From contig JAFGLN010000014.1 in NCBI GenBank assembly GCA_016928025.1, positions 65,391 to 129,390 on the forward strand: DNA of 64,000 nt. Reading direction: 5' to 3'. The notes under the pieces were generated by a model. That model did not search any database. It was given only the letters and a program-made list of their open reading frames with translations, and was not told the DNA's origin. The position numbers and the translations under genes are program-made. Source of the stretch: Deltaproteobacteria bacterium. Lineage in GTDB: Bacteria; Desulfobacterota; Syntrophia; Syntrophales; JAFGHS01. Shown piece after piece: positions 27,073 through 41,458 of this stretch (position 1 is its first letter; the number at the start of each line of letters is the position of its first letter).

Positions 27073-28344
27073 ATGAACAATCGATATATAAAAAGATTTC
27101 TTGTATTTGCGGCTATGGTTGTTTTTTTATGGCCCTGGTTCGTAAATGCAAAAAAGGAGTCATATTCAACGTTCAGCCACAAAGAACTGGTCCAGATGAT
27201 CGCACCGGTTGCCCTCTATCCCGATCCACTGCTCTCACAGCTGTTGATTGCCGCTTCTTATCCTTATGAAGTGGTGGAAGCGGAGCGGTGGCTCTCTGAC
27301 AATCCGTACCTGACCGGCCAAGCCCTGGACGAGGCCCTGAGGCAAAAAAACTGGGATATCAGCATCGCTTCTCTGTGCCATTATCCCAAAATCCTGACCA
27401 TGATGGCGGGCCACCTGACATGGACCGCAAAGCTCGGCGACGCCTTCGTCTATCAGGAGCAGGAAGTCATGGAGACGGTCCAGGAACTGCGCGCCAAAGC
27501 CCTGGCGCAAGGCAATCTGGCAACGACGTCCGAACAGCAGGTTATTATTGAGGGGAATATTATCCGCATCGAACCGGCCCATGAAGATTATGTCTATGTT
27601 CCCGTGTATGATCCTTACACAATATACGGTTCCTGGCATTATCCGACCCATCCGCCGTTTGTGATCTATTATCCCGGTTATACGCTGATCGGATCACGTA
27701 TCGTCTTTTCTCCGGGCCTCTATATCGGTTTCGGCTTTTTCGGCTGGAGCAGTTTCAACTGGATAAACCGTACCGTCGTGGTTGTCGATATCGACAGGAG
27801 GAAGCATTACGACCGGCATGCCCATGCGCATAGGAGCGCTCCGCGGATTCCCTGGCGGCCCGACCGGCAAAAAAGGATTGAACACCGGTATCGGGCGCCT
27901 TTGCCGTCTCCCGCTCGTCCTCCCAGTATGCCACCACCAAAGGTCCACGAGAGGAAGGTCATTAAGGGGAGACCTGCGGCGCCGTCCGTTGTTAAACCGG
28001 CTCCGGTCCCGCCACGGTCAAAAGAACGACAGCCTGATATCAGGCGACACACACCGGTCAAGCCTGTACCGCCGCAGAGCAAACCGCCTGTTATTCAACG
28101 GGACAAATCCACCCCAGCGCCTGGTAGAAGCGCTGCACCACCACCGACCCCCAAAACGGGTGGATTCATGGACAAGTTAAGAAGGGACGTCATTAAAAGG
28201 GATGCCGAACGACGGGAGAATAGGACTTTCCAACCTCCTTCCCGTGGTACCGACCGTAAGGAAAAATCATGGCGCGACGAGAAACGTGATGAAGAAAAGG
28301 AGCTGGTTCCTCAAGCGGGAGAACGACGCGGGAAGAAACAATAA
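27073..28344 (+). CDS. DUF3300-family secreted protein with a Pro/Lys/Arg-rich C-terminal half
   Basis: A signal peptide 'MNNRYIKRFLVFAAMVVFLWPWFVNA' is followed by the DUF3300-type segment 'LVQMIAPVALYPDPLLSQLLIAASYPYEVVEAERWL'. The C-terminus is low complexity. GGAGG precedes the ATG. Confidence 0.8.
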   Translation: MNNRYIKRFLVFAAMVVFLWPWFVNAKKESYSTFSHKELVQMIAPVALYPDPLLSQLLIAASYPYEVVEAERWLSDNPYLTGQALDEALRQKNWDISIASLCHYPKILTMMAGHLTWTAKLGDAFVYQEQEVMETVQELRAKALAQGNLATTSEQQVIIEGNIIRIEPAHEDYVYVPVYDPYTIYGSWHYPTHPPFVIYYPGYTLIGSRIVFSPGLYIGFGFFGWSSFNWINRTVVVVDIDRRKHYDRHAHAHRSAPRIPWRPDRQKRIEHRYRAPLPSPARPPSMPPPKVHERKVIKGRPAAPSVVKPAPVPPRSKERQPDIRRHTPVKPVPPQSKPPVIQRDKSTPAPGRSAAPPPTPKTGGFMDKLRRDVIKRDAERRENRTFQPPSRGTDRKEKSWRDEKRDEEKELVPQAGERRGKKQ

Positions 28345-28426: not shown

Positions 28427-29821
28427 GTGAAAGAGTTAATCATAACCCTGTCATCCGATGCCCTTTTAACAAGCGACTGCCCGGAGCTTCTCAAGGCCGT
28501 TACCGAGACATTGACGTTCATCAATCCCCTATGGATCGAAAACAAAAAGATGAAGCGCTGGCAGGGCAATACGCGCCGTCTGATCCAGTGTTACAGGCGG
28601 ACCAGGCAAGGGCTGTCCGTCCCCCGGGGTTTCATGGGTCAACTGATCTCCATGGCGAAGAGCTTCAGTGTCCCCTACCGCATCATCGACCAACGCCGGT
28701 CCCTTCCGGATACCTTTTATCGATTTGATGGATTCTTGAAGCCTTTTCAGCGCCATGCCGTTGATGTCATGTTGAAAAAAGATTTCGGCATCCTGGCGGC
28801 GCCGACGGGATCGGGCAAAACGGTGATGGCCCTGGCCATGATCGCGGAGCGGAAACAGCCGGTCCTGATCATCGTCCACTCCAAGGAGTTGTTGAACCAA
28901 TGGATCGACCGCATATCAGCTTTTCTGGCCATACCGGAAAAAGATATCGGGATCATGGGCGCCGGAAAAAAGACGATCGGGAATCAAATTACCGTCGGGA
29001 TCGTTAACACCATCTATCAGGTGGCCGATGAGATAAAGGATCGCATCGGATTTCTCGTTGTCGACGAATGCCACCGGACCCCGGCGCGGACATTTACCGA
29101 GGCCGTGTCCGCCTTCGACTGCAAATACATGCTCGGGCTGTCGGCCACACCCTGGCGGCGGGACAATCTGACAAATCTCATTTACTGGTATATGGGCGAT
29201 TTACACCACAAGATCGATCAGGCCGGTCTTATCGAATCAGGCGATATCCTCCAGGTGGAAGTCATCACACGGGAAACGGCGTTCATTCCCACGTACGATC
29301 CCATAGAAGAATACACCACCATGCTGTCCGAATTGACGGAAGATAAAGTTCGAAACGCTTTGATCGCGGGGGATATCGTTAATGAGGCAAAAAAAGGCGA
29401 CGGCGTCTGCCTGATTCTCACGGATCGAAAAGAGCACTGCCGCGCTTTGGCCCAAATGATCGGCGCTCAGGGCATAGAGGCCGACATCCTGACCGGTGAT
29501 CTGGCGGACAGTGAACGGCAGGACATCATCGAAAGGCTGAATAAAGGCAGGATCAGCGTGCTGATCGCCACGGGTCAATTGATCGGCGAGGGCTTCGACT
29601 GCAGCGCCCTGTCCACCCTTTTTCTCACAACACCCGTCAAATTCGACGGGCGGCTCCTTCAATATCTGGGCCGCGTCTTAAGACCGGGACCGGGGCGCGA
29701 CAAGGCCAGGGTCTACGATTATGTCGATGTGAACGTCGGTCCCCTGAAAGCCCAGGCCCGTTCAAGGGCACGGGTGTACACGCAAATGTCAAACCCGCCT
29801 ATGCTACCTCACAAGATTTGA
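28427..29821 (+). CDS. superfamily-2 DEAD/DEAH-box helicase (XPB/Rad25/type III res-like)
   Basis: The gene has a GTG start and encodes 464 aa. Motifs are Walker A 'AAPTGSGKT', motif II 'VVDECH', motif III 'GLSATP' and motif VI-like 'QYLGRVLR'. The N-terminal domain of about 95 aa is unassigned. Confidence 0.85.
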   Translation: MKELIITLSSDALLTSDCPELLKAVTETLTFINPLWIENKKMKRWQGNTRRLIQCYRRTRQGLSVPRGFMGQLISMAKSFSVPYRIIDQRRSLPDTFYRFDGFLKPFQRHAVDVMLKKDFGILAAPTGSGKTVMALAMIAERKQPVLIIVHSKELLNQWIDRISAFLAIPEKDIGIMGAGKKTIGNQITVGIVNTIYQVADEIKDRIGFLVVDECHRTPARTFTEAVSAFDCKYMLGLSATPWRRDNLTNLIYWYMGDLHHKIDQAGLIESGDILQVEVITRETAFIPTYDPIEEYTTMLSELTEDKVRNALIAGDIVNEAKKGDGVCLILTDRKEHCRALAQMIGAQGIEADILTGDLADSERQDIIERLNKGRISVLIATGQLIGEGFDCSALSTLFLTTPVKFDGRLLQYLGRVLRPGPGRDKARVYDYVDVNVGPLKAQARSRARVYTQMSNPPMLPHKI

Positions 29822-31111
29822 AAGCACCAGCACCGTCCAGTAGGGAAACAGCATGAGCAACACAATCGCGATGATATAAGACGGAATATAGTAGAAACTC
29901 CCCCGGAAGACGGTTCCCAGGGGAATGTCCTTCGCCATACCCGCCACCACATAACAGCAGATGCCGATGGGCGGCATGATAGACCCCATGGTCGTCACGA
30001 TGGTAATCACCTGTCCGAACCAGATGGGATCGTAGCCCATGGCCATGACGATGGGATAGAAAATCGGCAGGGAAACGAGCAGAAACGCCAGGGCGTCCAT
30101 GATGCAGCCGCCGATGACATAACACAAAAGAATGGCACACAGAAGCATCCAGTTAGACAGCCCCAGTGAACTGATCCAGGTGGCCGCCTCGAAGGGCAGG
30201 CGGGTCAGGGTCAGAAAACGGCCGAAGATGATGGCGCCGGCGATGATCATGAAGACCATGCAGGAAATCCTCAGTGTATCCTTGATCGACGCGATGAATC
30301 CTTCCCAGGTCAGTTTCCTTCTCAACAGACAAATAATGAGTCCCAACGTGCAGCTTACGGCGGCGGCCTCTGTCGCCGTCACGACGCCTGTAAACAGGGC
30401 GTACATGATGATGCCGAACAGCAAAAGAATGTCCAGCGCCTCCGGTAGGGCTTGAAACCGCTCCCGCCAAGTGCTTTTATCGCCTTTGGGACCCCAGCTC
30501 GGGTTCCGGTAGCAGATGAAAAAGACCGTTGCCGCAATGAGCACCGTAAGGATAACACTGGGGATGACATTGCCGAAGAAAAGCTTGCCGATGGACTGGC
30601 CGGTATACAGGCCGTAGACGACCAGAACGATGCTTGGCGGAATGAGGACACCGAGCGTCGCGCCCGCTGCCACGGACCCGGCGTTGAGCATGGGATGGTA
30701 GCCGTATTTTTTCATGGAGGGAATGGCCACCGTGCTCATGGTGGCGGCGGTGGCCGTGTTGGAGCCGCTGATGGCGGAAAAAGCCGCCGAGGCCATGATG
30801 GTCGTAATGGCCAGGCCGCCCCGGTAATGGCCGAACCACCGATGGGTGGCGAAATAGAGACTGTCGTTGTAGCCCGCATAATGGATGAATTCGCCCACCA
30901 GGATGAACATGGGGATGACCGTCAGGCCATAGCTGGAAAAGATATTCCAGAGTTCCGCGCCGATCATCCCGCAGGCCGCCGGAATGGACGTGACATAGGC
31001 GATGCCGCAGAAGCCCACAATGGCCATCGTAAAGCCCGCCGGAATTCTGAGAAGAAACAGAACGGCGAACATGATCCCGATGCCGTAGACCCCGATCATG
31101 GCCTCGTTCAT
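29804..31111 (-). CDS. dctM: TRAP transporter large permease
   Basis: The protein is 435 aa, polytopic and DctM-like. Its ATG overlaps the dctQ stop (ATGA at 31111-31108). Confidence 0.92.
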   Translation of the reverse strand: MNEAMIGVYGIGIMFAVLFLLRIPAGFTMAIVGFCGIAYVTSIPAACGMIGAELWNIFSSYGLTVIPMFILVGEFIHYAGYNDSLYFATHRWFGHYRGGLAITTIMASAAFSAISGSNTATAATMSTVAIPSMKKYGYHPMLNAGSVAAGATLGVLIPPSIVLVVYGLYTGQSIGKLFFGNVIPSVILTVLIAATVFFICYRNPSWGPKGDKSTWRERFQALPEALDILLLFGIIMYALFTGVVTATEAAAVSCTLGLIICLLRRKLTWEGFIASIKDTLRISCMVFMIIAGAIIFGRFLTLTRLPFEAATWISSLGLSNWMLLCAILLCYVIGGCIMDALAFLLVSLPIFYPIVMAMGYDPIWFGQVITIVTTMGSIMPPIGICCYVVAGMAKDIPLGTVFRGSFYYIPSYIIAIVLLMLFPYWTVLVLSNLVR

Positions 31112-31620
31112 ATGGCAGCCTTCCTTTCCCCGTTTCCGCCGTTGTGCAAGGACTTCAGGAAATCAATGGCACCGGCAAGGGCGAGAATGGCAAATCCCAG
31201 AGCGACGCCGTAAACGAAGGGATGATAGATAATTTTCAAGGTTTCCGAAAGCTCCCCCGATTCGCTGATTTTCATGCCCCACAGGAAGGTCTGCCGGGAA
31301 ACAATTACAAAAAAGACACAGATGACGAAATAGGAAATGGTGTTCAAGATCCGCTTGATACCCGGCGGAAACTTTGCCGAAAGGATATCGACGACGATAT
31401 GATCCCGGTTTCTCTGGGTGTAGCCGAGGGCCGACGCCGTGACGACGGCCCCCAGAAATGAAATGATTTCATAGGACCCGCTGAAAGGGAGGTGGAAAAT
31501 TCGCATGGCGACATTCGCCGTGGCCAGGATCATGAGGACCAGCATGGAGACGCCGCCCGCGATCATCATCGCTTTATTAAGCAGTAAATCGAATCGGTCT
31601 AAATATTTCATGCTAAACAC
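31108..31620 (-). CDS. dctQ: TRAP transporter small permease
   Basis: The protein is 170 aa with 4 TM segments. It lies between the dctP-like and dctM-like genes and starts immediately after the dctP stop. Confidence 0.88.
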   Translation of the reverse strand: MFSMKYLDRFDLLLNKAMMIAGGVSMLVLMILATANVAMRIFHLPFSGSYEIISFLGAVVTASALGYTQRNRDHIVVDILSAKFPPGIKRILNTISYFVICVFFVIVSRQTFLWGMKISESGELSETLKIIYHPFVYGVALGFAILALAGAIDFLKSLHNGGNGERKAAI

Positions 31621-32649
31621 TTATTGATATTTCTTCTCATACTTTGCCTTCAAACTGTATACGTCTTTCATGATCTGTTCGCCCGGAAGGCCCTGCGTCG
31701 TCACCTTCTTGACATAATCCTGAATCATGGGATTCAGGAGCTTCGCGATCTTCGCTTTTTCTTTTTTCGGCAGCGTAATGAGTTCGTGGTTGTACTTTTC
31801 TTTTGACCAGACCAGGGCTTCCTTGACATGGTCTTCAACATAGGTTCCCGTCCAGAGGGCCTGCTCGACCCGCAGTTCGTCGATGACCTTTCTGACATCC
31901 GCCGGCAGGGCGTTATATTTATCCTTGTTCATGACGACGGCAAACGAGACGACAAACAGGTTGGCGTCCGTGGCGTAAGGACAATAAGCGGCAAAGTTGA
32001 AGTCCTTCAGAATCTCCATGGAAGAGACCATCCCCTTCACGACACCCTTCTGAATGGCCTCCGGCGTCTCCGACTGGGGCATGGCGACCGGGACGCCGCC
32101 CAGCATTTTGATCATCTGCGCGCCCGTTCCCGAAACACGCAGCTCCATGCCTTTAAGATCTTTGAGCGACCGGATGGGACGGCTGGTCATGAAATCCGTG
32201 GGAGGACAGGTAAAGACCGTGAGAACCTTGACTTTCTCGAACTCCTTCGGCTGGTATTTTTCAATGAGATCGAAAAGGACGAGGCTGGCCACCTTCGCGT
32301 TTTTGAAACCCACGGGCAAATCGACGGCCTCGGAAATGGGGAAGCGGCCCGGCTGGTAGCTCATGGCAAAGTTGCCGATATCGGCCGTCCCGGAGATGAC
32401 GCCGTCAAAAATGTTTTTGGCCGCGAGCAGCGTTGAACCGGGAAACGTTTGAACAACGACGGCCCCATTGGTTCTCTTCTCCACTTCCTTGGCCCAGCGT
32501 TCCATCTGGACACAGGGGAACGTCGAGGCCGGGGGAAAGTTGGCGTACGTTAATTTGATGGGGGCCGCATTCACGGATAAGGGTAACGCCGCGACGGCAA
32601 CCAGAAGCGCCAGGAGCACGACAACGGTTCTACAAAAATACTTTTTCAT
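31621..32649 (-). CDS. dctP: TRAP transporter substrate-binding protein (DctP family)
   Basis: The protein is 342 aa with a signal peptide ('LLALLVAVAALPLSVNA') and a DctP-type fold. AAGGGAGG precedes the ATG. Confidence 0.9.
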   Translation of the reverse strand: MKKYFCRTVVVLLALLVAVAALPLSVNAAPIKLTYANFPPASTFPCVQMERWAKEVEKRTNGAVVVQTFPGSTLLAAKNIFDGVISGTADIGNFAMSYQPGRFPISEAVDLPVGFKNAKVASLVLFDLIEKYQPKEFEKVKVLTVFTCPPTDFMTSRPIRSLKDLKGMELRVSGTGAQMIKMLGGVPVAMPQSETPEAIQKGVVKGMVSSMEILKDFNFAAYCPYATDANLFVVSFAVVMNKDKYNALPADVRKVIDELRVEQALWTGTYVEDHVKEALVWSKEKYNHELITLPKKEKAKIAKLLNPMIQDYVKKVTTQGLPGEQIMKDVYSLKAKYEKKYQ

Positions 32650-32711: not shown

Positions 32712-32780
32712 AACATCCCCCTTTAGAAAAGGGGAAGCTATAATTCGATCCCCTCTTTATAAAGGGGGGTTGGGGGGATT
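32712..32780. repeat. family A palindromic repeat, 2 units, in the iorB-dctP intercistronic gap
   Basis: The two cores are ccccctttagaaaagggg (32717-32734) and cccctctttataaagggggg (32750-32769), followed by ttggggggatta. The terminal signature is the same as the mtaB array (aaaggggggtaaggggggatt). The repeat abuts the iorB stop at 32779-32781. Confidence 0.8.
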
Positions 32781-33309
32781 ATTTTTGTGTGGTACCGTTA
32801 ACCCCCAACCCCAACCTGAAAGCCTTGAGATTAAGTTCCAATTGCTTCGGTTGAGAAATCCGCCGGATGACATTTTTCATCAATTCCGCTGTACAGAAGA
32901 GGCTGTCCGTCTGAACGGCGTATCCGATAAGGACCAGATTGGCCACCACGACCGCCCCGGCGTCTTTCGCCAGGGTTGTGGCATCGCAATGCTCATAATC
33001 ACCGGATGAAGCCGTGTTGACAAAAATCCGCCCCTCTTTCGTCATCAGATCCCGGTGGACACCCAGATTCGCCGGAGTGAGAAACAGGCCGACATCCGCC
33101 TGGCCTCGCCGAATCAGAGGGCTCTTGAACGCGCCGATTTTGATGTGGGATACGACGGTCCCCCCTCGCATGGCCATGCCGTGACTCTCAGAAGTCAAAA
33201 CATTAAGCCCCGCCTCCATAGACGCTTCGGCAATGACCCGGGTCGCAAAGACAACCCCCTGACCGCCGACGCCGCTTACGATAATCTGTTGTTTTATGTT
33301 TTTCATCAT
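32779..33309 (-). CDS. iorB: indolepyruvate:ferredoxin oxidoreductase subunit beta
   Basis: The protein is 176 aa. 'IIVSGVGGQGVVFATRVIAEA' and 'SESHGMAMRGGTVVSHIKIG' are typical of the IorB / 2-oxoacid:Fd oxidoreductase gamma family. It lies downstream of iorA. Confidence 0.9.
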   Translation of the reverse strand: MMKNIKQQIIVSGVGGQGVVFATRVIAEASMEAGLNVLTSESHGMAMRGGTVVSHIKIGAFKSPLIRRGQADVGLFLTPANLGVHRDLMTKEGRIFVNTASSGDYEHCDATTLAKDAGAVVVANLVLIGYAVQTDSLFCTAELMKNVIRRISQPKQLELNLKAFRLGLGVNGTTQK

Positions 33310-33456: not shown

Positions 33457-35266
33457 ATTTTCTTGTAATGGCGCCCATGGGACAAACAGACACACAGACG
33501 CCGCAGCCGACGCAGGTATTCTCATCAATCACGACCCGCCCCTCTGCTTTGTCCAGCAGCAGGGCGGGGCATTCAAACTCATTCAGGCATTCTTCACAGC
33601 CCGTACAATCCTCCGTAACCTCCACTTCAAAGACCGGCTGCTTGTCCCTGATGCTTCTGTCCAGAAGACAGGGATGTTTCGAAATCACGACGGCGATGCC
33701 CCCTTCCACCGAGCGGCAATAGCGGTCGGCATCTCTCAAATGGGCGCTGAAGTCGTCCATGTCATAGGGATCGCATTCCCGGATAAACTCGACACCGCAT
33801 CCCTTTAATATGTCCGGAATCAAGACGGGCTTTCCCGGAGTGCCGTCTGCCGTGATTCCGACCTGTGGCGTCGGCTGGTTGCCTGTCATGGCCGTCGTGG
33901 CATTGTCCAGAATGACGAGAATAAATTTCGCTTTCTGAAAAACCGCGTTAATGAGGCCCGGAATTCCCGCATGGAAAAAGGTCGAATCGCCGATGCTGAC
34001 GACAATGGCCGGCGGGTCTTCCTGTCCCGCATAGGCAAAATAAAAGCCCGTCCCCTGACTGATGCAGGCACCCATGCAGTGGCAGGTGTCGATGGCTCCA
34101 AAATTCATCCCCAGGGTATAACAGCCGATATCGCTGGGGAAAATCCCCCGCGGGAAAGTCGTTTTAATGGCATAATAGGCGGCCCGATGGGGACATCCGG
34201 CACAAAGGGCGGGCCGCTTCCCTTTTGCCGCCGCAGGAGGCGCCTCGCCGGCAGGCAGATCCAGGAATTTTTCCAAGGCCCCCTGGATGACATCCGGCGT
34301 CAGTTCGCCGCGGTTGGGAATCCGGCCGGATTGCCGCCCCTGAACACGGGGATCGAGGAGCTGTGCCTCAATGACCGGATAGGTTTCCTCGACGATCAGG
34401 ATATGGTCGTAGCCGGAGCGGATCTGTTCGATAAAATTCCGCTGCAGCGGATAAGGCAGGGTAACCTGGAAGAGGTCGATCTGTCCGAGCAGTCCCATGT
34501 CTTCCAGCAGATCATAGGTACAGGCAAAGGCAACGCCGGAGGCGATAATGCAGGTAGCCTTTCGGGAGCCATCTCCTTTAAAGCAGCGGGGCCGGAAATC
34601 ATCCAGTTTCGAAATGTCGTCGATCTTTTCGTTGAGCTTGCGATGCAGCTCCGGAATGAATTGAGGCGTGGCGATCCAGCGGCCGGGATCCTTTTCAAAG
34701 CGGGGTGTTCTTTCCATGAATACCGGCTCATCGCAGGAAACATTCTGGCGGGCATGACAAACCCGCGTCGTCGGCCGGAGCATGACGGGGATCTCGTATT
34801 TTTCCGACAGGTCAAAGGCTGTTTGCACCATGGCCTTCGATTCCGCCGGGCTGGACGGATCCAGAACGGGAATTTTGGCAAACTGGGCGAAAAAGCGGCT
34901 GTCCTGCTCCGTCTGCGAACTGTGGGGGCCCGGATCGTCGGCCACCACGAGAACGAATCCGCCCTTCACCCCCAGGTAGGCGGAGCGCATGAACGGATCG
35001 GCGGCCACATTCAGCCCGACCTGTTTCATGGCGACAGCGGAGCGCTTCCCCGTATAGCTGCTTGCCAGGGCCCCCTCATAGGCGACCTTTTCGTTGACGG
35101 ACCATTCAAGGTGCATCTTCGCGTTCGTCTCTTTCGCGAATCCCACTGACGCCGCCAGGATTTCCGAAGACGGCGTTCCGGGATAGGCGGAAAAGAATTC
35201 GCATCCGCACTCCACAAGCCCCCTGCCCATGGCCTCGTTGCCCATTAAAATTCTTTCATCTTTCAA
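33455..35266 (-). CDS. iorA: indolepyruvate:ferredoxin oxidoreductase subunit alpha
   Basis: The motifs are 'LMGNEAMGRGLVECG', TPP-binding 'GDSTFFHAGIPGLINAV' and two C-terminal ferredoxin motifs ('CTGCEECLNEFECP', 'CVGCGVCVSVCP'). The start is taken as TTG 35266 (AAGGAGA lies 11 nt upstream); ATG 35245 is the alternative. The longest-ORF ATG at 35320 lies in the loop of a terminator hairpin and is rejected. Confidence 0.92.
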   Translation of the reverse strand: MKDERILMGNEAMGRGLVECGCEFFSAYPGTPSSEILAASVGFAKETNAKMHLEWSVNEKVAYEGALASSYTGKRSAVAMKQVGLNVAADPFMRSAYLGVKGGFVLVVADDPGPHSSQTEQDSRFFAQFAKIPVLDPSSPAESKAMVQTAFDLSEKYEIPVMLRPTTRVCHARQNVSCDEPVFMERTPRFEKDPGRWIATPQFIPELHRKLNEKIDDISKLDDFRPRCFKGDGSRKATCIIASGVAFACTYDLLEDMGLLGQIDLFQVTLPYPLQRNFIEQIRSGYDHILIVEETYPVIEAQLLDPRVQGRQSGRIPNRGELTPDVIQGALEKFLDLPAGEAPPAAAKGKRPALCAGCPHRAAYYAIKTTFPRGIFPSDIGCYTLGMNFGAIDTCHCMGACISQGTGFYFAYAGQEDPPAIVVSIGDSTFFHAGIPGLINAVFQKAKFILVILDNATTAMTGNQPTPQVGITADGTPGKPVLIPDILKGCGVEFIRECDPYDMDDFSAHLRDADRYCRSVEGGIAVVISKHPCLLDRSIRDKQPVFEVEVTEDCTGCEECLNEFECPALLLDKAEGRVVIDENTCVGCGVCVSVCPMGAITRK

Positions 35267-35293
35267 GGGTAATCGGTTCTCCTTTTTATAAAT

Positions 35294-35330
35294 AAAAAAA
35301 GGCCGTGGATTTTGGCCCATCCACGGCCTT
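35294..35330 (-). terminator. intrinsic terminator between the leader ORF and iorA (attenuator candidate)
   Basis: On the minus-strand RNA the structure is AAGGCCGUGGAU-GGGCCAAA-AUCCACGGCCUU, a perfect 12-bp stem, followed by a U-run (plus-strand A7 at 35294-35300). The iorA Shine-Dalgarno sequence follows directly. Confidence 0.8.
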
Positions 35331-35356
35331 GTAAATCAAACTTCAAACTGGTGCCT

Positions 35357-35434
35357 TTAGAGGACAAGCCTTTCCCGCTTATTTAACCTCCGCCACCACC
35401 AGCAATTTAAAATGTATTTTTCGGTAAGCTTCAT
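35357..35434 (-). CDS. putative Trp-rich leader peptide (25 aa, MKLTEKYILNCWWWRRLNKRERLVL)
   Basis: The ORF runs from ATG 35434 (AGGA at 35446-35443, 8-nt spacer) to TAA 35359-35357. Three consecutive TGG codons lie at 35401-35393. It is too short for the supplied ORF track and was translated by hand. Confidence 0.55.
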   Translation of the reverse strand: MKLTEKYILNCWWWRRLNKRERLVL

Positions 35435-35457
35435 TGTTTACGTCCTGATTGATCAGA

Positions 35458-35484
35458 TTTATATCAACAAAAACAAAAAATCAA
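35458..35484 (-). promoter_or_regulatory. possible sigma70 promoter for the leader / ior operon
   Basis: On the minus strand, TTGATT (35484-35479), a 15-nt spacer and TATAAA (35463-35458) are present. The spacer is short, so this is tentative. Confidence 0.3.
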
Positions 35485-35723
35485 GAAGAATTTAAGGTAC
35501 GATGGTACAAAAAAACAGGGCGTTGCTATATGGTACACGTCCATCAGAGCAGGGTTTTTATTTCTTGTAATTTTCCTTATACTTTGTTTAGCTTATGCCA
35601 ATCATCAACCTTAAGCTACCATGTGAACAGATCCGCATAATAAACCATATTACTGAGTGTGCTTCGGGTGTGACTGCCCATTTCTTGTAACCTTTAAAAT
35701 CTCTATTACTTGAGGTAATATAA

Positions 35724-36302
35724 ATGTCACAAATTGAACAAAACCTGCGGTCAAAGCAGAATATTCCTGAAATCAGGTGCTATCGGTCTCCAAAAATTGA
35801 AATCCGCGCCAGCGGTCCAAAGGGTCGTGGGCTTTTCGCGACGGAGAAGATCAAACGGGGTGAGGTCGTCGCCATCAAGGCGGGGCATATTGTGACGGCG
35901 GATCGACTTCCTGAGATTACCACTGCCACCGGAGATTACGCCCTTCAGATCGATGATTATTTTTACCTGAGTCCGATCTCATCGGAAGAAGTTGAGAGAC
36001 TCACTATCTTCATCAACCATTCCTGCGACCCCAATGTCGGCTTCGACGGTCAAATCACCTATGTCGCCATGCGCGACATCGAACCGGAAGAGGAATTGTG
36101 CCACGACTACGCCATGATGCGTACCGACGGCTATTCCCTGGATTGCCTTTGCGGATCGGAACTCTGCCGGGGCAAAGTTACCGGCGAAGACTGGAAAGAT
36201 CCTCAGCTCCAGCAAAGATACGGCAACTATTTCTCTTCTTACATTTTGCGTAAGATCAGGCAGCTCAGGGAGACTGAAGGAAAACAGTTTTTATCGCAAT
36301 AG
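35724..36302 (+). CDS. SET-domain protein (putative lysine methyltransferase)
   Basis: The protein is 192 aa. 'GRGLFATEKIKRGEVV', 'FINHSCDPN' and 'ELCHDY' are the SET signature, and a post-SET-like Cys cluster 'CLCGSELCRG' follows. GAGG precedes the ATG. Confidence 0.85.
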   Translation: MSQIEQNLRSKQNIPEIRCYRSPKIEIRASGPKGRGLFATEKIKRGEVVAIKAGHIVTADRLPEITTATGDYALQIDDYFYLSPISSEEVERLTIFINHSCDPNVGFDGQITYVAMRDIEPEEELCHDYAMMRTDGYSLDCLCGSELCRGKVTGEDWKDPQLQQRYGNYFSSYILRKIRQLRETEGKQFLSQ

Positions 36303-36424
36303 AATTGACTTGGAGATGGGGAACATCCAATGTCCCGCGGGAAACAAACTATAGATTACTCTAAAACATCAGGGACAAAAGGGCCTCGTGTTTCAACAGC
36401 CCGGCAACGAAGACGGACGAGATA

Positions 36425-37219
36425 TTGAGGCAAAACTTACGAACCTATGGCAAAGCGCCTTTTAGCATAGCCGTCATCCACGGAGGTCCCGGCGGCGGTG
36501 GAGAAATGGCACCGATTGCCCGCCGGCTGGCCGGCGATTATGGCGTCTTGGAGCCGATCCAGACAGCCGGCACCCTTGAAGGGCAAGTTCGGGAACTGAA
36601 ACAGGTCTTGGAGGAACATAGCTCTTTCCCGGTTGTTCTGATCGGCTTTTCCTGGGGGGCCTGGCTCAGTTTCATCGTTGCGGCCCGCTGCCCTGCTCTT
36701 GTTAAAAAACTGATACTGGTGGGATGCGGTCCGTTTGAAGAAAAGTACGTCTTACTGCTTCACGAAACGAGGCTAAGCCGCCTCAATGCAGAGGAGAAAA
36801 TCGAGTTTGCGTCCCTCCTCCAGGCGCTCAGCGGCCCGCAGGCAAATGATCAAGACCGCGTCTTGGCCCGGTTAGGACTTTTGGCATCAAAAGCGGACAC
36901 CTATGACGCGCTCACGGACGGGATCAATGACGCAGACAAGATTGATCTGTCCGGCGGTATCTACCAAAGCGTATGGGATGCCGCAGCCAACATGCGAAGG
37001 ACCGGGGAGTTGTTGAAATTGGCCGAACAGATCCAATGCCCCGTGTTTGCGATACACGGCGATTACGATCCCCATCCGGCGATAGGCGTTGAAAAGCCTC
37101 TATCGGGTGTTCTCAAGGACTTTCGCATGGTGATACTTGAAAAGTGCGGACATACGCCATGGATGGAGCGGCAGGCACAGGAGCGTTTTTATCACGTTCT
37201 CCATGAGGCGCTACTTTAA
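36425..37219 (+). CDS. alpha/beta hydrolase
   Basis: The gene has a TTG start and encodes 264 aa. The oxyanion region is 'VIHGGPGGGGEM', the nucleophile elbow is 'GFSWGAW', and the C-terminal 'GHTPWMER' supplies the His. Confidence 0.8.
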   Translation: MRQNLRTYGKAPFSIAVIHGGPGGGGEMAPIARRLAGDYGVLEPIQTAGTLEGQVRELKQVLEEHSSFPVVLIGFSWGAWLSFIVAARCPALVKKLILVGCGPFEEKYVLLLHETRLSRLNAEEKIEFASLLQALSGPQANDQDRVLARLGLLASKADTYDALTDGINDADKIDLSGGIYQSVWDAAANMRRTGELLKLAEQIQCPVFAIHGDYDPHPAIGVEKPLSGVLKDFRMVILEKCGHTPWMERQAQERFYHVLHEALL

Positions 37220-37270
37220 GATTTGTGCAACTATCAGAGATTGACAGTATCGGCCAACAAGGGGAAAAAC

Positions 37271-37846
37271 ATGCCGATGAATATCGAAATAAAGGCCCGC
37301 ATCGAGAGCGTTGATTCTCTCTTTCCAAAAGCCGCCGAGATTGCCGATAAAGGACCCATCGAAATCGCTCAGGACGACACCTTCTTTACGTGCCCGAACG
37401 GCCGGTTGAAGCTCCGCGTTCTGTCCCCCACGGAAGGACAGCTTATCTTCTACCGCCGCTCCGACAAGAAAGGACCCAAGGAATCGTTCTACCTCGTTTC
37501 CCCCACAACGACTCCTGACACTCTGCGGGAGTCTTTGTCGCTGGCCTATGGCCAGTACGGGCATGTGCGCAAGATGCGGACACTGTTTCTTGCCGGAAAT
37601 ACCCGCATCCATCTTGACCGGGTTGAAGGCCTGGGGGATTTCCTCGAGTTGGAAGTCGTCCTGTCGGAGGGCGAGGCGATTGAAGCGGGCCAAGCCGTTG
37701 CCCGGGAAATTATGGACAAGCTCGGTATTCTGCCGGATCAACTCATCGAGGGAGCCTACATCGACTTGCTAAATTCACCAGATGCTGAAAGAAGCGTGGG
37801 TACGGATGGTCAACGATTCCCGAAAAATTTGTACCGGGCAGAATAA
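37271..37846 (+). CDS. CYTH-domain protein (class IV adenylate cyclase / triphosphate tunnel metalloenzyme)
   Basis: 'MPMNIEIKARI' contains the ExExK motif, and 'RIHLDRVEGLGDFLELEVV' is also present. GGGG precedes the ATG at 37271. The ORF is open from 37223. Confidence 0.8.
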   Translation: MPMNIEIKARIESVDSLFPKAAEIADKGPIEIAQDDTFFTCPNGRLKLRVLSPTEGQLIFYRRSDKKGPKESFYLVSPTTTPDTLRESLSLAYGQYGHVRKMRTLFLAGNTRIHLDRVEGLGDFLELEVVLSEGEAIEAGQAVAREIMDKLGILPDQLIEGAYIDLLNSPDAERSVGTDGQRFPKNLYRAE

Positions 37847-37925
37847 CGATATTATATGAGCCTGCGCCGGCAAAGGACGGCGCTCTGGGTCTGTGGGACT
37901 GGAAAATGAACCGAACAGGAAGGAC

Positions 37926-38507
37926 ATGATGAGCCATTTTTTTGCCTATCTGTCGAGAATGAAATTCATTCAGCGTTGGGGCATGATGCACAACACGTAT
38001 CCCGAAAACGTCCAGGAGCACAGTTTGCAGGTCGCTATGATTGCCCATGCCCTGGCCGTCATCCGGAACCGCCTGTTCGGAGGCAACGTCAACCCGGAGC
38101 GCACCGCCGTCCTGGCCCTTTATCACGATGCCGGCGAAGTGCTCACAGGTGACCTGCCGGCGCCCATCAAATACTTCAATCCGGAGATCAAAACGGCTTA
38201 TAAAGCCATCGAGGCAGCTTCCGCCCGGAAGCTTTTCTCCATGGTGCCCGACAGTCTCAAAGCGGACTACGAGGCGCTGTTTCTCACGAAGGATCAAGAC
38301 CGCATCCATCGCGACCTGGTCGCGGCCGCCGACAAGCTTTGCGCCTACCTCAAGTGTCTGGAAGAAATAGGGGCCGGCAATCAGGAATTCTCAAAGGCCG
38401 AAAAAGCGCTCATCGCAATGGTCGAGGAACTTGATCTTCCGGAAGTGCGCTATTTCGTGGAAACGTTTGTGCCGAGCTTCAAGCTGACGCTGGATGAGCT
38501 GGATTGA
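37926..38507 (+). CDS. yfbR: HD-domain 5'-deoxynucleotidase (YfbR-like)
   Basis: 'FIQRWGMMHNTYPENVQEHSLQVAMIAHAL' and 'ALYHDAGEVLTGDLPAPIKY' carry the HD metal ligands. AGGAAGG precedes the ATG at 37926. Confidence 0.85.
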   Translation: MMSHFFAYLSRMKFIQRWGMMHNTYPENVQEHSLQVAMIAHALAVIRNRLFGGNVNPERTAVLALYHDAGEVLTGDLPAPIKYFNPEIKTAYKAIEAASARKLFSMVPDSLKADYEALFLTKDQDRIHRDLVAAADKLCAYLKCLEEIGAGNQEFSKAEKALIAMVEELDLPEVRYFVETFVPSFKLTLDELD

Positions 38508-38587
38508 ATGGGAGGCATTTCATTGCACAATGAATTGATCGTAAAGAAAAGAGACGGATAACCCAAAAGAAGGGAAGGAAATTGTCC

Positions 38588-39109
38588 ATGGAGGAAGAAA
38601 AAAATCATTCTGAAAAGCAGGACAAGAAATTAGCGGCGGTATGTGGCCTTTACTGTGAGGCCTGCTCGTGGTTTATCGCAACGACCGAAGATCCGGAAAG
38701 GCTCAAAAAACTTGCGGCACAATTGCATATGTCCGAAGAAGAAAGCAAATGTTATGGATGCCGATCGGATAAGCGGATACCCTATTGCGAGCAGTGCAGA
38801 ATGTTCGCATGCGCCGCTGAGCAGGGCATCGACTTTTGCGGCGAATGCAATCAGTATCCCTGCGACGAGATCAAACAGTTTCAATCCGCCATGCCTCATC
38901 GAATCGATCTTTGGACCAATCTTGAACGCATCAAGTCTGTTGGTTACAAAAAATGGCTTGCAGAAACAAGGGAGGACTATACCTGCCCGCAATGCGGGAC
39001 CATCAATTCCACCTATGACATCAAATGTCGAAAGTGCGGCGAAGAGCCGAGCTGCAATTATGTAGCCCAACACAAGCAGGAGATCATTCGGTTTTTGAAA
39101 AACAGGTGA
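38588..39109 (+). CDS. DUF3795-family Cys-rich protein
   Basis: The Cys pattern 'AAVCGLYCEACSWF...CYGCRS...CEQCRMFACA...FCGECNQYPC' is typical of DUF3795. A C-terminal zinc-ribbon-like 'CPQCG...CRKCG' follows. GGAAGGA precedes the ATG at 38588. Confidence 0.75.
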   Translation: MEEEKNHSEKQDKKLAAVCGLYCEACSWFIATTEDPERLKKLAAQLHMSEEESKCYGCRSDKRIPYCEQCRMFACAAEQGIDFCGECNQYPCDEIKQFQSAMPHRIDLWTNLERIKSVGYKKWLAETREDYTCPQCGTINSTYDIKCRKCGEEPSCNYVAQHKQEIIRFLKNR

Positions 39110-39188
39110 TTCCAACCCATTTGATCCGATGCGGGTCGGAAACAGCCGTCAAAGAAAAGTGGCTGGTAGGGACATAAAGGAGTTGCGA

Positions 39189-39599
39189 ATGATTGATTAC
39201 AGGACCGGCATAAACAGCATCTACTGGGAGGCTCTCGCCAATTTGTATCTTCAGGTCGGGTTGGGCATCGGGAAAAAAGATGTCGCTACGCTTCGCCAAG
39301 CATTTGAAGGCAGCGGCAAGGTCGTAACGGCCTGGCATAATGGAGAACTGGTCGGTGCCGGACGCATGATCACCGACGGCATACGCTACGGCAGCATATT
39401 CGACGTCGGCGTTCTTCCCGCATTCCAGAAGCAGGGAATAGGAAAGGATATTATGAATGAGTTAATAAAAGGAAATGAGCACCTGTATATTCATCTTACG
39501 TCCACATTCGGCAATGAGCTGTTTTACAGTAAGCTCGGTTTCCGGCGCCATAAGACGGCAATGGCCAAATATCCGCATGATTCGGACTATCTGGAGTAA
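39189..39599 (+). CDS. GNAT-family N-acetyltransferase
   Basis: 'VGAGRMITDGIRYGSIFDVGVLPAFQKQGIGKDIM' is the acetyl-CoA-binding motif A (Q/RxxGxG). AAGGAG precedes the ATG at 39189. Confidence 0.85.
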   Translation: MIDYRTGINSIYWEALANLYLQVGLGIGKKDVATLRQAFEGSGKVVTAWHNGELVGAGRMITDGIRYGSIFDVGVLPAFQKQGIGKDIMNELIKGNEHLYIHLTSTFGNELFYSKLGFRRHKTAMAKYPHDSDYLE

Positions 39600-39618: not shown

Positions 39619-40908
39619 TCAATTCCGGTTGTCGAAAACCCGCTTTGACTTGCGCTCCGTTCGGGGGAGGGACTGATAATCCACAATTTCCACCTGGCCG
39701 CTGACAAGGGCTTCTTTGCGGACGGTCCTTTCGATGCCGGTCGCCAGGTTGCGGTCGCTCGCCGGATCGCCGCCCTCTTCCCGCTCTACCTTGATTGTCA
39801 TGTAATCCTTGCCGTCGTCCAGGCGGTCGAGATGGATCTGGAATTCGCTGCCGATGCCCTGCTGCCGGGAAAGGATCTCATCGATGTGGCTGGGGTAGAT
39901 ATTGACGCCCCGGACGATGAACATGTCGTCGGAGCGGCCGACGATTTTGTCGTGCCGGGGGAACGGCGAGCCGCAGGGGCAGTCGCCGGGGATGAGTCGC
40001 GTCAGGTCTCGGGAGCGATAGCGGATCATGGGCGCCCCTTCCTTTTTCAGGGTTGTATACACCATCTCGCCTACTTCCCCCTCTTTGACCGGCTCCAGCG
40101 TTTCCGGATCGAGGATCTCCAGGATATAATAATCGGACCAGTAGTGAATCCCCGTGTGGTGAACGCAGTCAAGGCCCGTGCCGGGGCCGTAAATCTCCGT
40201 CAGACCGGGGATGTCGAAGATATGCTCCGCTCCCAGAAGGGTTTTGACTTTTTGCCTCAGGGCGTCACTCGACCGCTCGGCGCCGAAAATGACCTTTTTG
40301 ACATTGATCTGGTCCCGCAATCCCCGGCTTTGGACTTCTTCCGCCAGAAGCAGGGCCATGGATGCCGTGCTGCAGATCACCGTGGTTTGGAAATCAACGA
40401 GAAACTGCAGCTGCATGTCGATATTGCCGGGCCCTGCGGGAATGGCGAAGGCGCCGAACCGTTCACAGCCCAGCTGAAAGCCCACACCAGCTGTCCAGAC
40501 ACCGTAACCGACACAGATCTGCACCCGGTCTTCTCTGGACAATCCCGCCGTCTCGTAACAGCGGGCAAACATGTCGGCCCAGTCATCGATGTCCTTGGCC
40601 GTATAGACCATGACCTTTCTCTTACCCGTCGTGCCGGATGAGGCATGAAGCCGCACGACATCTTCAAAGGGGACCGAGATCAGGGGATAGGGATAGTTTC
40701 CCTGAAGGTCCTGTGAGGTGGTAAACGGCAGCCGCTTTAAGTCTTCGAGACTCTTGATATCCTCCGGCTTGACCCCTGCTTCATCGAATTGTTTTCGATA
40801 AAAGTCCGATCCCGTGTAAGCGTGATGGACCGTCCATTTCAGGCCCGCAAGCTGCAGAGCGGCCAGTTCATCCGTTGTTATCGATGCCTGTGTGAATCTT
40901 TTTTGCAT
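39619..40908 (-). CDS. paaK: phenylacetate-CoA ligase family (aryl-acetate-CoA ligase)
   Basis: The protein is 429 aa. 'LHASSGTTGKRKVMVYTAKDIDDW', 'GLTEIYGPG' and 'YRSRDLTRL' are typical of PaaK. GAGG precedes the ATG. Confidence 0.9.
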   Translation of the reverse strand: MQKRFTQASITTDELAALQLAGLKWTVHHAYTGSDFYRKQFDEAGVKPEDIKSLEDLKRLPFTTSQDLQGNYPYPLISVPFEDVVRLHASSGTTGKRKVMVYTAKDIDDWADMFARCYETAGLSREDRVQICVGYGVWTAGVGFQLGCERFGAFAIPAGPGNIDMQLQFLVDFQTTVICSTASMALLLAEEVQSRGLRDQINVKKVIFGAERSSDALRQKVKTLLGAEHIFDIPGLTEIYGPGTGLDCVHHTGIHYWSDYYILEILDPETLEPVKEGEVGEMVYTTLKKEGAPMIRYRSRDLTRLIPGDCPCGSPFPRHDKIVGRSDDMFIVRGVNIYPSHIDEILSRQQGIGSEFQIHLDRLDDGKDYMTIKVEREEGGDPASDRNLATGIERTVRKEALVSGQVEIVDYQSLPRTERKSKRVFDNRN

Positions 40909-40978: not shown

Positions 40979-41051
40979 CCTGTCATTCCCGCGCAGGCGG
41001 GAATCCAGATATTTTAGTTACTGGACCCCCGATCAGGTCGGAGATGACAGG
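40979..41051. repeat. family C repeat (CCTGTCATTCCCGCGCAGGCGGGAATCCAG ... ATGACAGG)
   Basis: The terminal inverted repeat is cctgtcat / atgacagg. The inner hairpin is ttcccgc-gcag-gcgggaa. It lies in the putative paaK 5' UTR. Confidence 0.75.
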
Positions 41052-41102: not shown

Positions 41103-41428
41103 GATTTTTGATCGGCACAGGGGTCTATATTTGACAAATCATCAAATCCACGTTAGACAAGCAAAGATCACGTTTCGGAACTGATGGTCCAGGTCATACC
41201 ATTGAATATGAATAAGCATGGGTCGCAGGAATACCGCGAGGCAAAAAAAACAAAAATTATTCAGGTCAAGAGACTCGATCACAAATCTTTTTTATCATTT
41301 TGACTGCAGGGAGAAATCACGAAAACAAATCATATTAACACTGTAAAATTTCTCGCAGATGTTCGAATAGCAAAATTGTCCATTGAGACATCGCTTCAAA
41401 AGTCGGATTAAAGCCGTTTTTAAGGACT

Positions 41429-41458
41429 GAATCCCGGATCGATATCCGGGATGACAGG
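41429..41458. repeat. partial family C-like repeat with a 9-bp-arm palindrome
   Basis: The palindrome atcccggat-cgat-atccgggat (41431-41452) is followed by gacagg. It contains the ATG at 41451 that opens the longest ORF of the next gene. Confidence 0.55.

Follow-up and report, generated by a model that had tools for sequence, protein, structure and literature searches.

A probable tryptophan-responsive leader-peptide attenuator upstream of indolepyruvate oxidoreductase-TRAP transporter operons in Syntrophales-type Desulfobacterota

The leader of an operon predicted to encode an indolepyruvate:ferredoxin oxidoreductase (IOR; iorAB) and a tripartite ATP-independent periplasmic (TRAP) transporter (dctPQM) was characterized in a stretch of 64,000 nucleotides from a Deltaproteobacteria bacterium of the Syntrophales (assembly GCA_016928025.1, contig JAFGLN010000014.1, positions 65,391 to 129,390), which is referred to here as the window and whose own numbering is used throughout. 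The leader is probably a ribosome-mediated attenuator of the trpL type that is turned on at tryptophan (Trp) shortage, and the operon most likely supplies Trp from scavenged indole acids. The component parts of the leader, their conservation, three helices that exclude one another and the association of the leader with TRAP genes are evident from the sequence and its comparison with relatives; from these we infer that the short open reading frame (sORF) is translated, that control runs in the direction of Trp starvation and that the operon has an anabolic role. The original prediction of a Trp-sensing leader-peptide attenuator before iorAB-dctPQM is supported, as the sORF, its run of Trp codons (W-run) and the terminator were kept upstream of orthologous operons in relatives.

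All parts of the leader are on the minus strand, and reading that strand from 35100 to 35800 confirmed every coordinate that had been given for the sORF, its AGGA, the UGG run, the hairpin, the T-run and the AAGGAGA that follows. A predicted promoter-like motif (35458-35484) consists of a -35 element, TTGATT (35484-35479), a 15-nt spacer and an extended -10 element, TGaTATAAA (35466-35458). Within this motif, TTGATTTTT and TATA were unchanged across a four-genome alignment, and the spacing was kept in the remaining leaders too, giving the family form TTGATT, 15-nt spacer, TGnTATAAA. A strict sigma-70 scan reported no promoter at the TATAAA/15-nt-spacer motif because the scan demands T at -10 position 6. 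The sORF (35357-35434; ATG 35434, TAA 35359-35357) has 25 codons and a stop, encodes MKLTEKYILNCWWWRRLNKRERLVL, and is preceded by a Shine-Dalgarno (SD) sequence, AGGA (35443-35446), 8 nt 5' of the ATG. Codons 12-14 are UGG UGG UGG (35393-35401), which is the presumed sensing site. The sequence TGGTGGTGG occurred twice in the window vs. 0.4 times expected. Its sole other copy (27931-27939, minus strand) is antisense inside a plus-strand open reading frame (27073-28344) and is probably due to chance.

The UGG codons lie in region 1 (CUGGUGGUGGCGGAGG, 35387-35402), the 5' strand of the 1:2, or anti-antiterminator, hairpin detected in the minimum-free-energy fold and by RNAalifold. Region 2 (GGCUUGUCCUCUAAAGGCACCAG, 35348-35370) includes GGCUUGUCCUCU and the stop codon of the sORF, and can pair either with region 1 or, through GGCUUGUCC at its 5' end (35370-35362), with region 3. 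The latter is the antiterminator partner GGAUGGGCC (35314-35322), made of the final 4 nt of the terminator 5' arm and 5 nt of the loop. The intrinsic terminator (35294-35330), recognized from the sequence, by the fold and by a terminator scan, begins 26 nt past the sORF stop and has a perfect 12-bp stem (35330-35319 with 35310-35299; arms AAGGCCGUGGAU and AUCCACGGCCUU), an 8-nt loop (GGGCCAAA) and a U-run whose last position is 35294. The SD sequence of iorA, AAGGAGA (35284-35278), comes next. The 191-nt leader folded at -55.4 kcal/mol (z = -2.95) as a long hairpin linking the Trp codons with CACCAG and CCUCU, followed by the terminator. For this single window, the evidence for an attenuator is modest; the decisive evidence is the conservation of the leader in 13 further loci.

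A scan for IorA with one genome per species gave eight close relatives, all Syntrophales, Smithellaceae or "Deltaproteobacteria" metagenome-assembled genomes (MAGs), and the unit was present upstream of iorA in three of them (L001, L003, and L004, with the peptides MIDIRNNYLTCWWWRRYKIR, MIINNKLNYWWWWR, and MSTVIFNSNYWWWRG, respectively). A scan of metagenomes with a DNA pattern that required the W-run returned eight matches, namely L012, L013, L011, which is almost identical to L003, and five chance matches in coding DNA. Of the 13 further distinct loci, all but L012 and L013 were reached by IorA similarity alone, and L020, L022/L023, L024/L025, L026-L029, and L030/L031 were IorA-homologue look-ups chosen blind to the leader. 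Together with the window, L001, L003, L004, L012, and L013, and with paired loci counted once, these make 14 distinct leaders. L018, which begins at a contig end, and P0005, which had no DNA, are outside this set.

The 14 Syntrophales-type genome and metagenome loci share the promoter-like motif, an SD sequence, an ATG-started sORF of 14-29 codons with WWW or WWWW, and the terminator, and conservation of this structure is well beyond chance. The W-run was never lost (14 of 14 leaders) and mostly comprises three UGG codons, with four in L003 and L030. An open reading frame from an ATG to the W-run was present in the Trp frame of all 14 leaders and in none of them in either of the other frames; shuffled upstream sequence gave an ATG-started frame reaching the W-run in 9.5% of trials. 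The distance from ATG to W-run ranges from 8 to 11 codons and differs among leaders by whole codons only, and an SD-like motif was detected 3-16 nt 5' of the in-frame ATG in 11 of the 14. The RNA sequence AAGGCUYGUCCUC is almost invariant. The N-terminal residues, the residues past the W-run, the position of the stop and the length of the peptide (14-29 aa) all vary. A covariance model built from the leader (R1) found no further copies across the window and 21 loci. An Rfam cmscan of 34800-36200 at E-values up to 10 gave nothing above threshold, neither a Trp leader model nor a T-box; the best match was the trpB motif RF04312 (21.6 bits vs. a gathering score of 59), which covered essentially the terminator only.

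Pairing and covariation were counted in an alignment of the 14 sequences (A2). The terminator stem was 98.4% paired, with compensatory changes in six of 13 pairs, and the 1:2 helix was 82.5% paired, with five double-change pairs. The two helices jointly were 87.7% paired vs. 30-49% when partners were slid by 1-3 columns, and the RNAalifold consensus independently gave the terminator and the core of 1:2 (columns 18-29 with 53-64). The antiterminator helix (2:3) was 86% paired vs. 24-46% when slid. Helices 1:2 and 2:3 have GUCC (columns 51-54) in common, and helices 2:3 and 3:4 have GGAY (columns 102-105) in common; the three helices are therefore mutually exclusive.

Folding had been recommended as a way to detect exclusive terminator and antiterminator structures. 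Full-length folds always kept the terminator and did not reveal an antiterminator; RNA cut before the terminator 3' arm, with region 1 masked, did fold into one. In these folds, the conserved element paired with the distal 5' arm and the terminator loop in all 14 leaders. In the window the resulting helix has 9 bp between GGCUUGUCC and GGAUGGGCC (35370-35362 with 35322-35314), and the fold energy downstream of a stalled ribosome was -16.0 kcal/mol (-11.4 to -21.4 kcal/mol among the 14 leaders). The sequence of the terminator loop depends on the clade and its complementarity to the element is retained: the antiterminator is CGAAGGCUcGUCC with GGACAGUCUUCG in L012-type leaders, GGAGGUUUGUUC with GGACAACCUUC in L028, and AAAAcUGUCC with GGACAaUUUU in L027. 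A duplex test with shuffled loops was added given the weakness of the formal covariation test, and the real loop duplex was better than at least 95% of the shuffled loops in 11 of 14 leaders. Two alternative pairings had been proposed from the sequence. That of CUGGUG (35402-35397) with CACCAG (35353-35348) was present in the minimum-free-energy fold, and that of UGGUGGUGG with the terminator 3' arm, considered as an antiterminator, was absent from every fold. The candidate antiterminators GGCUUGU with ACAAG(G)CC at the base of the stem and AAAGGC with GCCUUU likewise appeared in no fold.

At the level of sequence, the leader has the features of a trpL-type attenuator: an sORF with a start codon and ribosome-binding site, tandem codons for one amino acid, an intrinsic terminator, and exclusive 1:2, 2:3 and 3:4 helices. 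Transcription would begin at the conserved promoter about 20 nt upstream of the sORF, and the UGG codons would be read within region 1. When Trp is plentiful or the leader is untranslated, either 1:2 would form or the ribosome would proceed to the stop codon; region 2 would be unavailable in both cases, the 12-bp terminator (3:4) would form and transcription would halt before iorA. Under Trp shortage, the ribosome would stall at the UGG run and cover region 1; with UGG in the A site, it would cover GGAGG and the lower 1:2 stem. Region 2, thus released, would form 2:3 with the loop and the distal 5' arm of the terminator ahead of synthesis of the 3' arm, and the polymerase would read through into iorAB-dctPQM. 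The stop codon comes directly after GUCCUC in nine of the 14 leaders, including that of the window, and in these an undelayed ribosome at the stop would occupy the antiterminator element and favor the terminator. The direction of control had been regarded as not deducible from the sequence. The architecture does point to one direction: the location of UGG in region 1, the stop codon on the antiterminator in nine of 14 leaders and a TrpB-like gene in the operons of two relatives suggest induction by Trp limitation, as in trpL, rather than TnaC-like induction by excess, a reading of design that we infer.

The iorA gene (minus strand, TTG 35266 to 33455) encodes an IOR alpha-like protein of 603 aa with the Pfam domains POR_N, TPP_enzyme_C and 4Fe-4S, which matches P0001, and iorB (32779-33309, minus strand) encodes a beta/gamma-type subunit (Pfam POR). 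IorA scored 646.7 bits against TIGR03336, below the cut-off of 650.9, and the NCBIfam IOR beta models matched IorB below their cut-offs (195 bits vs. 227 for NF004916); the domain architecture of the two proteins fits indolepyruvate:ferredoxin oxidoreductase (Pfam). The TRAP transporter genes (29804-32649, minus strand; Pfam) are dctP (31621-32649), dctQ (31108-31620), and dctM (29804-31111). The ATG of the longest iorA frame (35320) had been placed in the hairpin loop; it does overlap the hairpin, and its exact site is where the 5' arm meets the loop. Automatic annotation, which had been expected to hide the hairpin, did not do so in the window, where the NCBI protein of 603 aa starts at TTG 35266. 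It did in L022 and L023, where the Joint Genome Institute gene call for iorA (629 aa) begins in the terminator region (L022:5001 and L023:2432). The annotated start in these two loci is probably too far upstream.

The leader is linked to the transporter. Every one of the 12 IorA-found loci with iorAB-dctPQM linkage and a visible upstream region of relevance carried it, and none of the four paaK-iorAB loci without TRAP genes did (L005, L008, L019, and L021, in which the paaK-iorA gap is short). Such TRAP-less paaK-iorAB loci may represent a paralogue that is catabolic or under different regulation. The TRAP-less locus L021 adjoins HpaB-like, thiolase and CoA-transferase genes. The genes of L030/L031 are arranged dctPQM-paaK-iorAB, with the leader (peptide MKTANKYNNFWWWWR) before dctP. 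A stand-alone gene for a TrpB-like pyridoxal phosphate enzyme lies directly 3' of dctM on the same strand in L024/L025 and L013 (741 bits against NF009057, cut-off 366), as the last gene, in one clade, of the putatively leader-controlled iorAB-dctPQM unit (L024:10289-11650, L025:7978-8085, and L013:11736-12269). No terminator-like hairpin was seen in the 68-nt gap between dctM and the trpB-like gene in L024. The window operon is without a TrpB-like gene, and its dctM end adjoins a convergent helicase gene.

The closest solved relatives of the window DctP are 4n6d, 4pgn/4pgp and 4nap (full length, E-values 7e-112 to 2e-95), which we take to be Desulfovibrio TRAP binding proteins. The entries 4pgn, 4pgp, and 4nap are presumably Dde_0634 with indole-3-pyruvate, indole-3-acetate, and D-tryptophan, the molecule names alone being visible in the matches. 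Dde_0634 is reported to bind indole-3-acetate (PMC9973260). A single-sequence AlphaFold model of DctP was unusable (mean predicted local distance difference test score, 37). In Methanococcus maripaludis, IOR is reported to support a second, aryl-acid route to aromatic amino acids (Porat et al., as cited in PMC4162585). By a comparable route, indole-3-acetate or indole-3-pyruvate would be taken up by the TRAP transporter and ligated to CoA by the neighboring PaaK-like enzyme; ferredoxin-dependent reductive carboxylation by IOR would then yield indolepyruvate, which would be transaminated to Trp. Salvage of Trp from indole acids, induced by Trp starvation, appears to be the most coherent reading. 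It draws on the linkage of the genes, on regulatory logic and on the presumed ligands of the DctP relatives, with the enzyme direction and the substrate both predicted. We tentatively suggest that syntrophic Desulfobacterota may possess a pathway of their own that is switched on by Trp starvation and makes Trp from indole-3-acetate or indole-3-pyruvate in the environment, with TrpB-like indole salvage in some lineages; this wider proposal is advanced with some doubt.

The leader might instead sense excess Trp in the manner of TnaC, where a W-rich nascent peptide and free Trp would stall the ribosome, block termination and induce a catabolic operon. TnaC, too, is about 24 aa long and has a key Trp residue, a stall at the W-run from any cause would release the same antiterminator, and the classical role of IOR is catabolic, as in the fermentation of aromatic amino acids (PMC5817080). 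We consider this explanation unlikely. Conservation of the peptide is limited to WWW and one or two flanking residues, its length of 14-29 aa and its stop position vary, and there are no conserved residues beyond Trp at a fixed spacing from the stop. The terminator is intrinsic, with a U-run, rather than Rho-dependent, and three to four identical codons in a row are the mark of sensing of tRNA charging. The TrpB-like gene inside the operon in L013 and L024 also argues against induction by excess, and an importer with an AMP-forming ligase as neighbor suits the assimilation of an external acid better than the degradation of Trp.

A second alternative is that the leader acts as RNA only, whether by a riboswitch or by binding a protein or tRNA, so that UGG is kept for pairing and the sORF is incidental. 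The UGG run does sit within the conserved 1:2 helix, and AAGGCUYGUCCUC is kept as RNA rather than as peptide, since the stop precedes this element in four leaders. Such a leader would not be expected to keep the Trp frame alone open from an ATG in every case, with an SD motif in 11, while the rest of the upstream sequence shows little conservation and carries whole-codon indels. No Rfam family matched, including the T-box and known riboswitches, and the element of about 120 nt is a simple hairpin with no obvious ligand pocket. An RNA-only element is very unlikely. Least probable of all, and very unlikely too, is that the paaK-iorA gap holds a plain terminator or insulator with no regulation and an sORF by chance, the hairpin merely closing a transcript from upstream or reducing basal expression. 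The unit is found just 3' of a paaK-like gene in most relatives and the terminator is present in every thermodynamic fold, but in the window and L001 the gene next upstream is not co-oriented, paaK and the sORF are separated by a conserved promoter-like motif, the sORF, W-run and alternative helices are all conserved, and the unit travels with the TRAP genes in L030.

Several observations weigh against a trpL-type attenuator that serves Trp supply. Because the leaders share ancestry, a count like 14 of 14 does not represent independent events, and L020, L027, and L028 have no clear SD sequence by the motif test. The spacer between the -35 and -10 elements is short (15 nt). In full-length folds, the terminator persisted in all cases, even with a 30-nt ribosome footprint or region 1 masked; the terminator is thermodynamically dominant and antitermination must therefore be kinetic. 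The same probably applies to E. coli trpL. Covariation in the antiterminator was thin, with two double-change pairs, and was not significant in the shuffle control (56/500); this formal test is weak, since the register of two clades is offset by one column and a single structure string fits them imperfectly. The loop-shuffle test was itself weak for L020 (0.38), L027 (0.088), and L026 (0.062). In L001, L003, L004, and L030, the stop is only 2-6 codons past the W-run and region 2 would be incompletely covered by a terminating ribosome, and these leaders would need rapid release of the ribosome and re-forming of 1:2. As to the role of the operon, IOR is known mainly from catabolism, the window operon contains no aminotransferase gene, and the ligands assigned to the PDB relatives of DctP are in part provisional.

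The gene for a PaaK-family arylacetate-CoA ligase in the window (39619-40908, minus strand) encodes a protein with the Pfam domains AMP-binding and AMP-binding_C_2 that scored 409 bits against TIGR02155 (cut-off, 646). In most relatives paaK abuts the leader upstream; in the window, five plus-strand genes lie between them and paaK is outside the attenuator. These genes (35724-39599) encode a SET-domain protein, an alpha/beta hydrolase, a CYTH protein, a DUF3795 protein with a zinc ribbon and a GNAT protein, and the block looks like an insertion or rearrangement. The immediate upstream neighbor of the leader is the divergent SET-domain gene (Pfam), and the hairpin therefore cannot terminate an upstream co-oriented gene. 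The window paaK-like gene has its own promoter-like site, and neither a leader ORF nor a terminator was found upstream of it.

An identical 25-nt palindrome, GGATTCCCGCCTGCGCGGGAATGAC, occurs in the window upstream of the paaK-like gene (40982-41006, minus strand) and at L002:1124-1148, where it is upstream of a leaderless iorA in a different MAG. A hairpin that looks related to this palindrome was also seen near 41425-41455 of the window. The palindrome looks like a small dispersed repeat of the repetitive extragenic palindromic (REP) or miniature inverted-repeat transposable element (MITE) kind. Just upstream of the W-run leader of L030 (L030:3855-4100; also in L031) is a promoter-like TTGACA..TATGAT, followed by an sORF, MKAITMTAAAATAAGAQRPMASDAFV, that is rich in Ala and Thr and possibly leaderless, and then by two terminator-like hairpins with U-runs (z = -6.2 for the fold of the region). 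These hairpins precede an alanine-transaminase-like gene (PRK08175, 540 bits vs. a cut-off of 647), and the covariance model of the W-run leader matched the region weakly (27 bits). This region may be a second, different leader-peptide attenuator.

Leader-peptide attenuators indicate which amino acid a cell seeks when an operon is turned on, and a Trp attenuator before an IOR-TRAP operon is therefore regulatory evidence on the function of that operon. It suggests that the widespread ior-TRAP clusters, usually annotated as fermentative or catabolic, serve Trp supply in uncultured syntrophs. If this is true, the role of such IOR clusters would be anabolic, and anaerobic consortia would use indole acids as a Trp currency exchanged by cross-feeding. 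Classical attenuation would be extended to Syntrophales-type Desulfobacterota and to a non-biosynthetic target, and an error in gene starts is flagged, as the iorA call overruns the terminator in some relatives. A full-text literature search that left most subscription journals uncovered turned up no account of leader-peptide attenuation of ior operons.

The nearest known systems are the trpL attenuators, which have a 14-codon upstream open reading frame (uORF) with two to three consecutive Trp codons and little else conserved (10.1101/606483). Like trpL of E. coli and trpL/peTrpL of Sinorhizobium meliloti, the ior leader has a short uORF with consecutive UGG codons, scant peptide conservation and an intrinsic terminator; it also has the three exclusive helices, and MIINNKLNYWWWWR and MKTANKYNNFWWWWR are near the 14-aa trpL peptide in size and layout. 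It differs from trpL in its target, which is an IOR and TRAP operon (joined by PaaK or TrpB-like genes in certain relatives) rather than trp biosynthesis; in its hosts, which are Syntrophales-type Desulfobacterota; in an antiterminator that uses the terminator loop; and in matching no Rfam leader model.

TnaC of the E. coli tnaCAB operon resembles the ior leader in that a short Trp-containing leader peptide precedes a Trp-related, non-biosynthetic operon and probably governs read-through by ribosome stalling. The TnaC signal is free Trp, detected by a conserved nascent chain that stalls at the stop codon and blocks Rho. Outside the W-run, the ior peptide and its stop position vary, its terminator is intrinsic, and its logic is seemingly that of induction by starvation.

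For the enzymes, the aryl-acid route of M. maripaludis as presented in the available text of PMC4162585 is comparable in that IorAB-type enzymes stand beside an arylacetate-activating ligase, an arrangement that fits the reductive carboxylation of arylacetyl-CoA to arylpyruvate. That route is archaeal, and neither leader-peptide control nor TRAP uptake is described in the same text. An attenuator induced by starvation would fit an anabolic use of IOR as in M. maripaludis. For the transporter, the Desulfovibrio binding proteins named above are the nearest solved relatives of the window DctP. Overall, the ior leader appears to represent a known mechanism with a new target in a new host group, and the loop-based antiterminator would be a minor structural peculiarity.

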